IMG/VR virus record: IMGVR_UViG_2874951433_000007
Coordinates: 1 to 40,255 of that record
Source of the DNA: a virus
Taxonomy: Duplodnaviria; Heunggongvirae; Uroviricota; Caudoviricetes
Length of the DNA stretch: 40,255 nucleotides
Direction: 5' to 3' (one strand)
Numbering within the stretch: position 1 is the first letter of the stretch; each line of letters begins with the position of its first letter. Below the pieces are notes generated by a model, which saw only the letters and a program-made list of their open reading frames with translations, did no database searches and was not told the origin of the DNA. Positions 5,288 through 7,750 of the stretch are shown piece after piece. The position numbers and the translations under genes were made by a program.

Positions 5288-5365
5288 ATGCAAAGAGATA
5301 TGCTGAATATTGCGTTCTACATATTTGGTTTTTGCACGTTCCTGGTGTTTGCGAAGCTATTCTGA
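5288..5365 (+). CDS. Hypothetical 25-aa hydrophobic peptide downstream of mnt
   Basis: MQRDMLNIAFYIFGFCTFLVFAKLF; RBS acggagga 3-9 nt upstream; below ORF-track cutoff; overlaps 3' end of convergent ejection-protein gene. Confidence 0.25.
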   Translation: MQRDMLNIAFYIFGFCTFLVFAKLF

Positions 5366-7750
5366 CAACGCATCAGACTTGGCACCCTGAGTCAGGGCGT
5401 TAATGGCCTTTTGCGCCTGCTGCATGGCTTTCTCAAACGCTGTTGATCCGCGTGGGGTGTTTGCCATTCGGAGCATTGCATTTCTGAATGGTTCGCTCTC
5501 ATAGGCGCGAGTAAGAAGTCCGTAGCTTACTGCTGCGCCAGTTGTCGCCGGGTTCATTGCCGTCCCATACCCGATAATGAACGGGATGGTTTGCTGCCCT
5601 GTTGGTGTTGTTACTGCCGCTTTTGCTGCCTGCTGAGTGGACTGAAGGTAATTTTTCAATCCTTTCAGATAAGCAGCGTCCTGCCCCTTAAATGTGATGC
5701 CAGTCTGGTTTTGCAGGATGTTAAGCTGCCGAAGGAACTGGTCAGGGGATCCGCCAGATTTCTCCATCGCCTTTCCAATGATGCCATTGCGCATTTGCAC
5801 CCTGCCAACACGACCAACTGAGTTATACAGCGTCTTAATTTCCGATTTGTTCTTGCTGAATAGCATGTTGTTGACAACTTCCGGCGTCAGATCGCCTTTC
5901 ATGAGAACATTCTTCAGCCTGGTATTCTTTAGTTTCGCCGCTTCGTCAGCGTAGACGGCATTGGCCTGCTGATATTTACGGAGAGTATCGTTGCCAAGAT
6001 TCTGACCAATGGCACCATTGATATCGTCGGTCATCGCCTTGTAAACGCGCTGAATGGCAGCATCGGAACGGTTTGGTAACACTGGTCGCCCACCCTTCAC
6101 GTCCATTCTGAACTGACTGCGCAGGTCGCTTAATTGCTTCAAATCCAGATTTACCGGACCTTCAGGGCCAGCATTGCGAACAAGCTCATCACGATATGAC
6201 TGAAGTTTTGAAATTGTCTCGTTATCAGCCACCTTACCAAGCTTCTGCAGGTTAGATATTTCTGTATCAATCTGCTGAATTGCTCGCGCAGGCTGAATGT
6301 TTACTCCAGCCATAGCATTCTGAACCTGCTCCAGTCGATTACCGGCGGCACGACGAATTCCTGATGTTTTCGCTTTAAGGCTGTCAATAACAACCGCTGG
6401 ATCATACTCCCCGAATTTATCAGCAAATCTCTGCACCAACTGGCTTCTCGCTTCCTGTTGCGTTGCTCTCATTCCGCTTGTTCCAGCCAGAGGGATATTT
6501 TCTGCTGTAGTCTGCGCCATTTTTCCGACGCGGGAAGTTGGTTGTAACAGGTCTGTGGTGTGCAGAGGAACTCCTTCACGCTCTGCAAATCTGATAGCCT
6601 GCTGCGCTTCTGGCGCGATAGCGCCACGAACGCCACGATAAGCAGCACCTAATCCACGTCCGGCAGCGTTAATAGCACCGCCAGCAAGTACACCAACGCC
6701 TAAATCGGTGGCGAGTGCTTCTGCATCATCTTTCGCACTATTTGCAGCAAGTGATCCAACTGCGTTTTCTGCCAGAAGGCGAGTTGCCCCCTGAGCGATT
6801 CTACCAGCGAGTGTTGGTGCCTGTGTTGCCGCTCTCTCAATGCCAGCAGGAGTGAGGTAAGGCAATGCTTCAGCAAATACCCTTCCCTCTGTCGTTTGTG
6901 GAGTCAGCGCGCCTTGCTGAAGGCCAAAGTCCTGCTCTAATCCCTGCGTTGTTACTCGTGGCGCTGGTTGATATGTACCATCTCCAATACCGAGTTTACC
7001 GCCAGCCCAAGCCGCCGCGCTTGTTACAGCATCAGTGAGTTCAGCAGGTATGTTCGCTACGTTGATTCCTGCCTGTAGTAAGCCGCGCCCGGTTTCAGCA
7101 AGTCCATTACCAAGGTCAGACATTATTCCGCCTTGCTGCTGAACAGGTTTCGGTGCGACAGAACTTACGGGTTGAGGTGGCTGCTGACTGGCTGCCTGCT
7201 GCTCAATCTGAGCAAATGGATTATTTGGGTCTGACTGCACACCTGATGCCGATACTTGTTCGGATGACTGTACTTCCAGTTGTGCAAACGGGTTGTTAGG
7301 GTCTTGCTGAGGATGTACCTTTGCAGAGGTGGCGCGCTGTTCGACTGTTGAGTCTGTCACCGGGTCACCCGCCCATTGAGCAAAGCGATCATCAACGTAA
7401 CCGCGGCCTTCAGGTCCTGGCGTATATTCACCACGCTTTGCCTTCATAACGTTGCCGGGACCGTCGTGATAAGCCTGAAGAGCGTCACGCCAGTTACCAA
7501 ACTGCTGGTACATCTTTGCCAGATAGCGCGCGCCAGCGTCAGCCTGATATTCGGGGTTTTGCATTTGCTCATCGGTATAACCCATATCACGCCATGTCCC
7601 AGGCATGACCTGAGTCAATCCTACAGCCCCGGCGGAGCTTACTGCGGCAGGGTTGTAAGAAGACTCCTTGGCACCCAGTGCAGTCATCAACCCTTCTGGC
7701 ACACCGTAACGTGCGCCAGCCTGCTCTAACAAATCACGGTAATTAGCCAT
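5357..7750 (-). CDS. Ejection/internal virion protein (gp16 position) with N-terminal lytic transglycosylase (SLT) domain
   Basis: 797 aa; N-terminal motif GAKESSYNPAAVSSAGAVGLTQVMPGTW ... ALQAYHDGPGNV typical of family-1 lytic transglycosylases; third of three ejection-protein genes. Confidence 0.75.
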   Translation of the reverse strand: MANYRDLLEQAGARYGVPEGLMTALGAKESSYNPAAVSSAGAVGLTQVMPGTWRDMGYTDEQMQNPEYQADAGARYLAKMYQQFGNWRDALQAYHDGPGNVMKAKRGEYTPGPEGRGYVDDRFAQWAGDPVTDSTVEQRATSAKVHPQQDPNNPFAQLEVQSSEQVSASGVQSDPNNPFAQIEQQAASQQPPQPVSSVAPKPVQQQGGIMSDLGNGLAETGRGLLQAGINVANIPAELTDAVTSAAAWAGGKLGIGDGTYQPAPRVTTQGLEQDFGLQQGALTPQTTEGRVFAEALPYLTPAGIERAATQAPTLAGRIAQGATRLLAENAVGSLAANSAKDDAEALATDLGVGVLAGGAINAAGRGLGAAYRGVRGAIAPEAQQAIRFAEREGVPLHTTDLLQPTSRVGKMAQTTAENIPLAGTSGMRATQQEARSQLVQRFADKFGEYDPAVVIDSLKAKTSGIRRAAGNRLEQVQNAMAGVNIQPARAIQQIDTEISNLQKLGKVADNETISKLQSYRDELVRNAGPEGPVNLDLKQLSDLRSQFRMDVKGGRPVLPNRSDAAIQRVYKAMTDDINGAIGQNLGNDTLRKYQQANAVYADEAAKLKNTRLKNVLMKGDLTPEVVNNMLFSKNKSEIKTLYNSVGRVGRVQMRNGIIGKAMEKSGGSPDQFLRQLNILQNQTGITFKGQDAAYLKGLKNYLQSTQQAAKAAVTTPTGQQTIPFIIGYGTAMNPATTGAAVSYGLLTRAYESEPFRNAMLRMANTPRGSTAFEKAMQQAQKAINALTQGAKSDALSE

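Follow-up and report, generated by a model that had tools for sequence, protein, structure and literature searches.

A predicted N-terminal lytic transglycosylase on the gene-16-type ejection protein of a P22-like Escherichia coli phage genome, and the pairing of its N-terminus type with the gp20 tail

We analysed a 40,255-nucleotide (nt) stretch of viral DNA (IMG/VR record IMGVR_UViG_2874951433_000007, positions 1 to 40,255; hereafter the window), which is a mosaic Lederbergvirus (P22-like) genome of Escherichia coli, and in particular the open reading frame (ORF) at 5357..7750 on its minus strand. Domain content, predicted fold and gene order make it very probable that this ORF encodes a gene-16-type ejection protein of a P22-like E. 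coli prophage or phage, in an allele that carries an N-terminal family-1 lytic transglycosylase (SLT) with a putative role in entry. The type of N-terminus found on such proteins is also strictly paired with the type of C-terminal tail on gp20, the product of the gene immediately upstream. The initial annotation had reported an ORF of 797 amino acids (aa) at these coordinates, without a strand, and had called the product larger than P22 gp16; the ORF is indeed intact, on the minus strand, and its product exceeds both P22 gp16 (609 aa) and Sf6 gp13 (665 aa). The gene is divided as follows:

5357..7750, minus: third ejection protein gene (gene 16 homologue), 797 codons plus stop, comprising SLT domain, linker and Sf6-type gp16 body
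7367..7750, minus: N-terminal lytic transglycosylase (SLT, family 1) domain, residues 1-128, from Pfam, AlphaFold2 and Foldseek
7664..7666, minus: codon of Glu29, predicted catalytic acid of the E-S motif, aligned with Slt70 E478 and T7 gp16 E37
7130..7366, minus: linker rich in Q, P and S, residues 129-207
7274..7303, minus: first DPNNPFAQLE motif, residues 150-159, a conserved island within the variable linker
7202..7231, minus: second DPNNPFAQIE motif, residues 174-183, likewise a conserved island
5357..7129, minus: gp16 body, residues 208-797 plus stop, all-helical and 96.9% identical to Sf6 gp13 residues 76-665
7133..7138, minus: mosaic junction, from blastn of the region against Sf101 and Sf6

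A search against the Pfam SLT profile (PF01464), which the initial annotation had proposed as the check on its domain call, returned a strong match over residues 7-110 (E 2.8e-25; 88.6 bits against a cut-off of 21.3; profile positions 2-110 of 117), and the motifs that it had quoted are present as K28-E29-S30, A40-G-A-V-G-L-T-Q47 and A93-Y-H-D-G-P-G-N100. The first of these holds the GH23 E-S motif at the end of the second helix, where E29-S30 aligns with E478-S479 of Slt70 and with E37-S38 of T7 gp16; Glu478 is the established catalytic acid of Slt70, and Glu37 is reportedly the residue studied by Moak and Molineux. The G-L-M/T-Q motif is found as G44-L-T-Q47 and the third motif as A93-Y-H-D-G97, with H95 instead of the usual N. 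By sequence the nearest solved structures are E. coli Slt70 (E 4.6e-10), MltC and MltE, while BLASTP matches T7 gp16 at E 1e-10 with 28% identity over 130 residues. Residues E29, S30, Q47, Y94 and G97 are invariant in a 42-sequence alignment of the window protein and 41 diverse SLT-domain proteins, and Glu29 is invariant across all 16 SLT-type gp16 homologues. Fifteen SLT-type homologues from other genera (Cronobacter, Klebsiella aerogenes and Kosakonia) share on average 90% identity with the window protein in the SLT domain, 77% in the body and 71% in the linker. The SLT domain is thus the best conserved segment, a pattern consistent with purifying selection on the enzyme. The E-S, GL(M/T)Q and AY..G motifs are held in common with E. 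coli Slt70 and other GH23 enzymes, but those are cellular, Sec-exported housekeeping proteins with superhelical accessory domains, whereas the SLT domain of the window stands isolated and fused to an ejection protein. Its N-terminus, MANYRDLLEQAGARYG, is not hydrophobic and has no signal-peptide character, which fits an enzyme made in the cytoplasm and delivered by the virion.

The predicted structure agrees with the profile match. An AlphaFold2 model of residues 1-130 (predicted local distance difference test, pLDDT, 93.1; predicted template modelling score, pTM, 0.86) was matched by Foldseek with probability 1.00 to Slt, Slt70 and LtgA (5ohu, 1qte and 5o1j) at template modelling (TM) scores of 0.78-0.85, with 0.81 against Slt70. 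Against the T7 gp16 chains 7eyb_I and 9jyy_I the TM score is 0.74-0.77, with a root-mean-square deviation of 2.8-3.0 Å and 27% identity. On this model we are confident in assigning residues 1-130 to the goose-lysozyme-like, all-helical fold of the family-1 lytic transglycosylases.

The remainder of the protein belongs to the P22-type gp16 family. Residues 108-797 match phrog_770, a 'DNA transfer protein' family, at E 2.8e-239, and PF26808 (Phage_P22_gp16) is precomputed for 99%-identical proteins; these are also the families of Sf6 gp13 and P22 gp16, which occupy the same operon position. No classical transmembrane helix emerged from a hydropathy scan of the body, in which the 19-residue maximum was 1.36. 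That this is the third ejection protein, as the initial annotation had it, is borne out by synteny, since homologues of gp7 and gp20 precede the 797-aa ORF on one strand and thereby identify it as the gene 16 homologue:

9092..9784, minus: gene 7 homologue, first ejection protein, 230 aa (PF25688, P22_gp7, E 1.8e-134)
7751..9082, minus: gene 20 homologue, second ejection protein, 443 aa (PF16928, E 6e-67)

The ORF is the last gene of a gp7-gp20-gp16 operon that lies between head-completion genes and the tailspike region, and the order gp14-gp7-gp20-gp16 with the tailspike downstream matches P22 and Sf6, as well as Sf101. Homologues of gp14, of an Sf6-type tail needle and of gp10 lie on the same strand upstream.

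Comparison at the DNA level indicates that the gene 16 homologue is a clean mosaic of an Sf101-like 5' part and an Sf6-type body. Upstream of a sharp junction, from within gene 20 through the first 618 nt of gene 16 and as far as 7133, the window shares 98.8% DNA identity with Sf101, and Sf6-like DNA that is 94.8% identical runs from 7138 past the gene 16 stop codon. Residues 1-183 correspondingly share 99.5% identity with the start of Sf101 gp13, a 911-aa protein in the same gene position that has another gp16 body; identity overall is 48%. The increase in size is explained by the exchange, in which a 207-residue module of SLT domain and linker replaces the 75-aa Sf6-type N-terminus. That N-terminus begins MAKAWKDVIAS in Sf6 and ST64T and the P22 protein begins MKVTANGKTF, and unlike the window protein none of these has an SLT match. 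With the N-terminal query, matches in Sf101, APC_JM3.2, Huey and Dewey are confined to residues 1-183, which implies that in these phages the SLT module is joined to another gp16 body, as shown for Sf101.

Between enzyme and body, residues 129-207 are probably disordered, as judged from their composition, a pLDDT below 50 in the model of the full-length protein, and their being the least conserved segment. Motifs of the form N-x-F-(A/D)-Q-hydrophobic, related to the DPNNPFAQ(L/I)E islands, occur in gp16 homologues of Murrayvirus, Aeromonas and Shewanella phages. A close architectural parallel is the Murrayvirus IME_EC2 gp26, a 1007-aa 'DNA transfer protein' encoded in a P22-like virion cluster, whose SLT domain is 62.8% identical (tblastn, query residues 4-144). 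As in the window protein there are two motifs, in gp26 of the form N-x-F-D-Q-F, and gp27, encoded upstream, has a tail ending ...YGFLPEGL. The two proteins differ in that the gp26 motifs flank the SLT domain on either side, and gp26 has a longer linker and another body.

The textbook case of a transglycosylase at the N-terminus of the largest ejection protein is phage T7. Its gp16 (internal virion protein D) is likewise the third and largest ejection protein of a podovirus, with SLT at its extreme N-terminus, and in both proteins the enzyme is followed by an extended segment, which in T7 tapes gp15 subunits together (PMC8954989). The likeness ends there, as only the N-terminal ~120 residues align and no similarity is detected past about residue 120; the T7 protein is 1318 aa long against 797, and P22-like phages are reported to lack the internal core stack of T7. 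By analogy the window protein would work like the N-terminal part of T7 gp16, but it is not a member of the T7 gp16 family.

Several lines of evidence thus support the suggestion of the initial annotation that this is a peptidoglycan-degrading protein acting at entry: the SLT match, the Glu-Ser pair, the predicted fold, the P22/Sf6-type body and the operon position, with activity and ejection presumed by analogy to P22 and T7 gp16. The protein is made without a signal sequence and, if it follows P22, would be packaged in the head with gp7 and gp20 and then expelled through the tail ahead of the DNA; P22 gp16 is packaged in the virion, ejected before the DNA and membrane-associated (PMC8402733, PMC10883804). 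There, gp20 would build a trans-periplasmic tube and the helical gp16 body would engage the inner membrane (after PMC10883804). The SLT domain, with Glu29 as acid, may then cut glycan strands locally and open the murein mesh for the conduit, joined to the body by the flexible linker of ~80 residues, with the twin motifs possibly clipping the enzyme to the gp20 tail. In T7 the N-terminal transglycosylase of gp16 is located on the periplasmic tunnel (PMC8954989).

Other muralytic functions are encoded elsewhere in the window:

12518..12979, minus: gp4 homologue, tail accessory factor (PF11650, E 5.5e-42)
21553..22029, minus: lambda R-type endolysin, a separate gene (phmmer against lambda lysozyme, PDB 1am7, E 2.6e-105)
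21098..21556, minus: Rz (PF03245), directly after the endolysin gene

Entry rather than lysis is the natural reading of the SLT domain given that a separate lambda-R-type endolysin and Rz are present. A small ORF occupies the holin position of this lysis cassette, and the endolysin itself has no match in the local Pfam copy at E <= 0.001. Lambda R is itself a transglycosylase, and the window encodes two unrelated murein transglycosylases, the lambda R-type enzyme for exit and the SLT-bearing gp16 presumably for entry. P22 gp4 is a virion protein with reported muralytic activity, proposed to serve in passing the murein at infection (PMC5380687). The same purpose is thus proposed for gp4 and for the SLT-bearing gp16, but gp4 is an unrelated protein that resides in the neck, is not ejected and lacks the SLT fold.

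Some observations weigh against an entry enzyme. The third motif reads AYHDG, where the usual form is AYNAG; most P22-like phages do without an SLT domain, which means that it is not essential to the general mechanism; the SLT module, together with its gene 20 end, is present in only about 71 of 5,426 complete E. coli genomes; and the model of the full-length protein is poor (pLDDT 47.5, pTM 0.26), so that the arrangement of domain and body is not readable from it. This model was built from 20 homologues and is unfit for fold comparison, and secondary structure alone was taken from it. The AYHDG variant is fixed in every SLT-bearing gp16 homologue aligned. By analogy with T7 gp16, the activity would probably help under certain conditions, such as a highly cross-linked wall, and not be essential; most P22-like phages lack the domain, and a gp4 homologue is retained here as well.

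The atypical third motif and the many relatives that function without the domain would also favour an SLT domain that is catalytically dead, or that is used only as a peptidoglycan-binding anchor to position the conduit. We consider this improbable, as the catalytic Glu-Ser and GLTQ are both intact and do not vary between genera, no other segment of the protein is as well conserved as the domain, and its fold and active-site residue can be superposed on those of active enzymes and of T7 gp16. A role as an auxiliary lysin late in infection, aiding lysis from within, is less probable still: some endolysins do contain SLT domains and the PHROG matches include 'endolysin' families, but here the domain is fused to the body of an ejection protein whose gene lies in the ejection operon, it lacks a signal sequence, a complete lysis cassette (lambda-R lysozyme, Rz and the small ORF at the holin position) is already present, and the homologous T7 domain acts at entry (PMC8954989). 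Finally, the protein database does contain deletion fusions of the gp16 body to N-termini derived from ninG, gp7 and the needle (P0239, P0234 and P0231), but we reject the idea that the large size of the ORF is artefactual (through chimeric assembly, or as a pseudogene fused in a decaying prophage) and leave it next to no probability, since the identical architecture recurs in independently sequenced phage records and is intact, with conserved synteny, in the orthologues of other genera described below and in 52 complete E. coli genomes.

The SLT-bearing protein is accordingly real but ordinary, a standard kind of virion-associated lysin that is already known at the level of database annotation. 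Over their full length, an ORF of phage IME10 is 98.9% identical and a phiKp_30 protein 93.9%. Many RefSeq entries are ~99% identical and annotated 'lytic transglycosylase domain-containing protein', the name that is also given to the full-length copies in the 52 of 5,426 complete E. coli genomes; some part of the gene, mostly the Sf6-type body, is matched in 366 of these genomes. Orthologues of 76-86% identity are found in Cronobacter, Klebsiella aerogenes, Kosakonia and Enterobacter, and both these and the 99%-identical entries all have the precomputed PF01464 plus PF26808 architecture and the same synteny. As an N-terminal module the SLT domain is also present in the records of phages IME10, phiKp_30, Sf101, APC_JM3.2, Huey and Dewey, and the GenBank record of Sf101 names its homologue 'transglycosylase'. 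Farther afield, in Murrayvirus IME_EC2 and other distant podoviruses with P22-like virion modules, the 'DNA transfer protein' begins with an SLT domain that is ~55-63% identical. The IME10 record (L002, NC_019501 31064-33454) leaves an intact 797-aa gene 16 homologue unannotated.

By itself this adds little, as the protein is correctly domain-named in GenBank and RefSeq. We did not find an explicit literature description of SLT-bearing gene-16 alleles in P22-like phages; an earlier description is possible in Casjens and Thuman-Commike 2011, and the mentions that were found are at annotation level only, namely the word 'transglycosylase' in the E212 paper and the product name in the GenBank record of Sf101. 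In reviews, gp4 is given as the only virion lysin of P22 (2017; PMC5380687), and P22-like phages are said to be without transglycosylase activity (2022), a statement that SLT-bearing alleles, present in ~1% of complete E. coli genomes, contradict. The opposite error occurs too, with very large RefSeq clusters of the SLT-less 665-aa Sf6-type protein named as lytic transglycosylase. Sf6 gp13, VSe13 gp13 and S9-5 gp16 (L001:2776-4773, VSe13_013 at L003:2276-4273, and L004:2273-4249) have no SLT match even at E = 1. Annotation has nevertheless drifted, as the 658-665-aa Sf6-type homologues of VSe13 and S9-5 are named 'lytic transglycosylase domain-containing protein', and the same name is carried by the Sf6-type clusters P0238 and P0240 (2,252 and 1,304 members). 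This misnaming has probably spread from SLT-bearing alleles via the common body.

In an alignment of gp20 homologues, the C-terminal end of gp20 varies with the type of gp16 N-terminus. The tail of the window gp20 is the following:

7754..7900, minus: gp20 C-terminal tail, residues 395-443, ending ...APQASIDYLKQHPELSIDFINRYGYLPSLGQ, which co-occurs with the twin-motif gp16 N-terminus

The same ending, ...APQASIDYLKQHPELSIDFINRYGYLPSLGQ, is found in the SLT-type loci of the window, Sf101, phiKp_30, K. aerogenes and Cronobacter, whereas Sf6 and P22 gp20 end in ...SLWGD and ...GIKFTVE. Five types of pair can be distinguished:

Type A: gp20 ending ...AIDYLxQxP...F..(R/K)YG(Y/F)LP, with twin N-x-F-(A/D)-Q-hydrophobic motifs in gp16
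Type B: gp20 ending ...SLWGD, with gp16 starting MAKAWKDVIAS (Sf6, VSe13, S9-5, ST64T and CUS-3)
Type C: P22 gp20 ending ...SKSGIKFTVE, with gp16 starting MKVTANGKTFNFPDG
Type D: gp20 ending ...INKYLGGQ, with gp16 starting MAYSREQL
Type E: gp20 ending ...GQK(I/L)(I/V)(Y/F)R(N/G)GQWQPM, with gp16 MATNVGLPEGFVLDEQ...QLPDGFVLDSQ and twin LPxGFVLD motifs (L181, L205 and L234)

Among 223 IMG/VR viral loci with complete genes, tail type and N-terminus type are concordant in all 223 (five types, n = 38, 102, 70, 9 and 4). A tblastn search with the gp20 tail as a short peptide, too insensitive for such a census, reached close relatives and two distant phages only. The flanks, in contrast, are reshuffled: clusters made at 70% identity from the first 200 aa of gp20, from the middle of gp20 and from the last 400 aa of gp16 each span several pair types, and identical flanks occur with different pairs of tail and N-terminus. 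Association between segments, expressed as Cramér's V, drops with distance:

gp20 tail versus gp16 N-terminus: 1.00
gp20 middle versus gp20 tail: 0.91
gp16 N-terminus versus gp16 body: 0.73
gp20 first 200 aa versus gp20 tail: 0.43

Type A loci differ in what accompanies the motifs. The YG(Y/F)LP tail and twin motifs occur with no accessory domain in Shewanella phage ZP9 and the IMG/VR locus L092, with SLT in the window and in IME_EC2 (one motif on each side of the SLT domain), with an extra domain of ~95 aa in Aeromonas phage 4_4512, and with both SLT and the ~95-aa domain in L012/P0227. Accessory domains (nothing, SLT, the 95-aa domain or both) are thus slotted before, between or after the motifs.

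The strict pairing suggests a gp20-gp16 docking interface that would tether the enzyme. We tentatively propose that gp20, through its last 30-50 residues, and gp16, through its first residues, dock as a matched pair, of which at least five interchangeable types exist, that these segments mark a physical interface between the two proteins, and that the SLT domain is carried as cargo, a reading that we hold to be possible but rather short of probable. Published genetics bear on it. P22 carrying Sf6 gene 16 alone or Sf6 gene 20 alone is dead whereas both together are functional, the last 33 residues of P22 gp20 are essential, their loss being lethal, and the authors conclude that P22 gp16 and gp20 must interact (PMC10883804). 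As P22 is of type C and Sf6 of type B, the single-gene swaps are mismatched pairs; if true, a docking pair would explain why genes 16 and 20 of P22 and Sf6 work only when swapped jointly. The covariation could also be plain linkage; the two segments lie directly next to each other, and the types have no common sequence spanning the gene border through which homologous exchange could take place. Strict pairing and swap genetics together make the docking pair a testable proposal for the contact site of two conduit proteins of P22-like phages. We also considered the C-terminus of T7 gp15 (...KFIYGRKE) as a relative of the type A tail and rejected it, as there is no convincing likeness; as a parallel for docking, T7 therefore offers a similar architecture but no similarity of sequence.

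The gene border itself also differs between types. In the window the gene 16 ATG comes directly after the TAA stop of gene 20 and in the same frame (GGGGCAGTAAATGGCT; 7748-7753, minus). Start-search offsets indicate that this stop-then-ATG layout is common to all type A loci, while in type B loci the ATG overlaps the stop. The layout of the junction suggests translational coupling, and read-through of the stop would fuse both proteins.

Further observations concern other N-termini. The type E gp16 N-terminus again contains a duplicated short motif. The conserved ~95-aa domain (GLIxxGNIDIHNRP...STVRSMS...LIPTV...MSDxEAI...TGxHLGxF...YAExLH) stands beside twin motifs with or without SLT, in L095:3593-6091 (Aeromonas phage 4_4512), L012:4001-6643, L043 and P0217/P0227/P0229; it has no Pfam, PHROG or PDB sequence match and may be another ejected accessory domain. 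The start of T7 gp16, MDKYDKNVP, resembles that of the motif-bearing IME_EC2 gp26, MANIFDQFDQNMP (MAFFT; L008:5902-6900 versus L009:3596-4315), a very short likeness that hints at common ancestry of the T7 gp16 N-terminus and the type A adaptor beyond SLT. In other database proteins the gp16 body is fused to N-terminal parts of tail-needle-like (P0231), gp7 (PF25688; P0234/P0235/P0237) or PF05766 proteins (P0239), the last of which we take to be lambda NinG-like; such fusions have the look of in-frame deletions in decaying prophages and not of functional variants.

Downstream of the gene 16 homologue, a promoter and terminator scan gave nothing above shuffled expectation, and the following genes are found:

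4974..5267, plus: mnt-like repressor gene, downstream of the gene 16 homologue
3173..4933, minus: tailspike gene, 586 aa, with a P22 head-binding domain and a phrog_17420 receptor-binding part
552..3106, plus: gtrA/gtrB-type pair and a third ORF (421 aa, no Pfam match), adjoining the tailspike gene

The region 552-3106 on the plus strand is an O-antigen modification cassette, as is typical in P22-like prophages, and its 421-aa ORF is a candidate for the serotype-specific GtrC.

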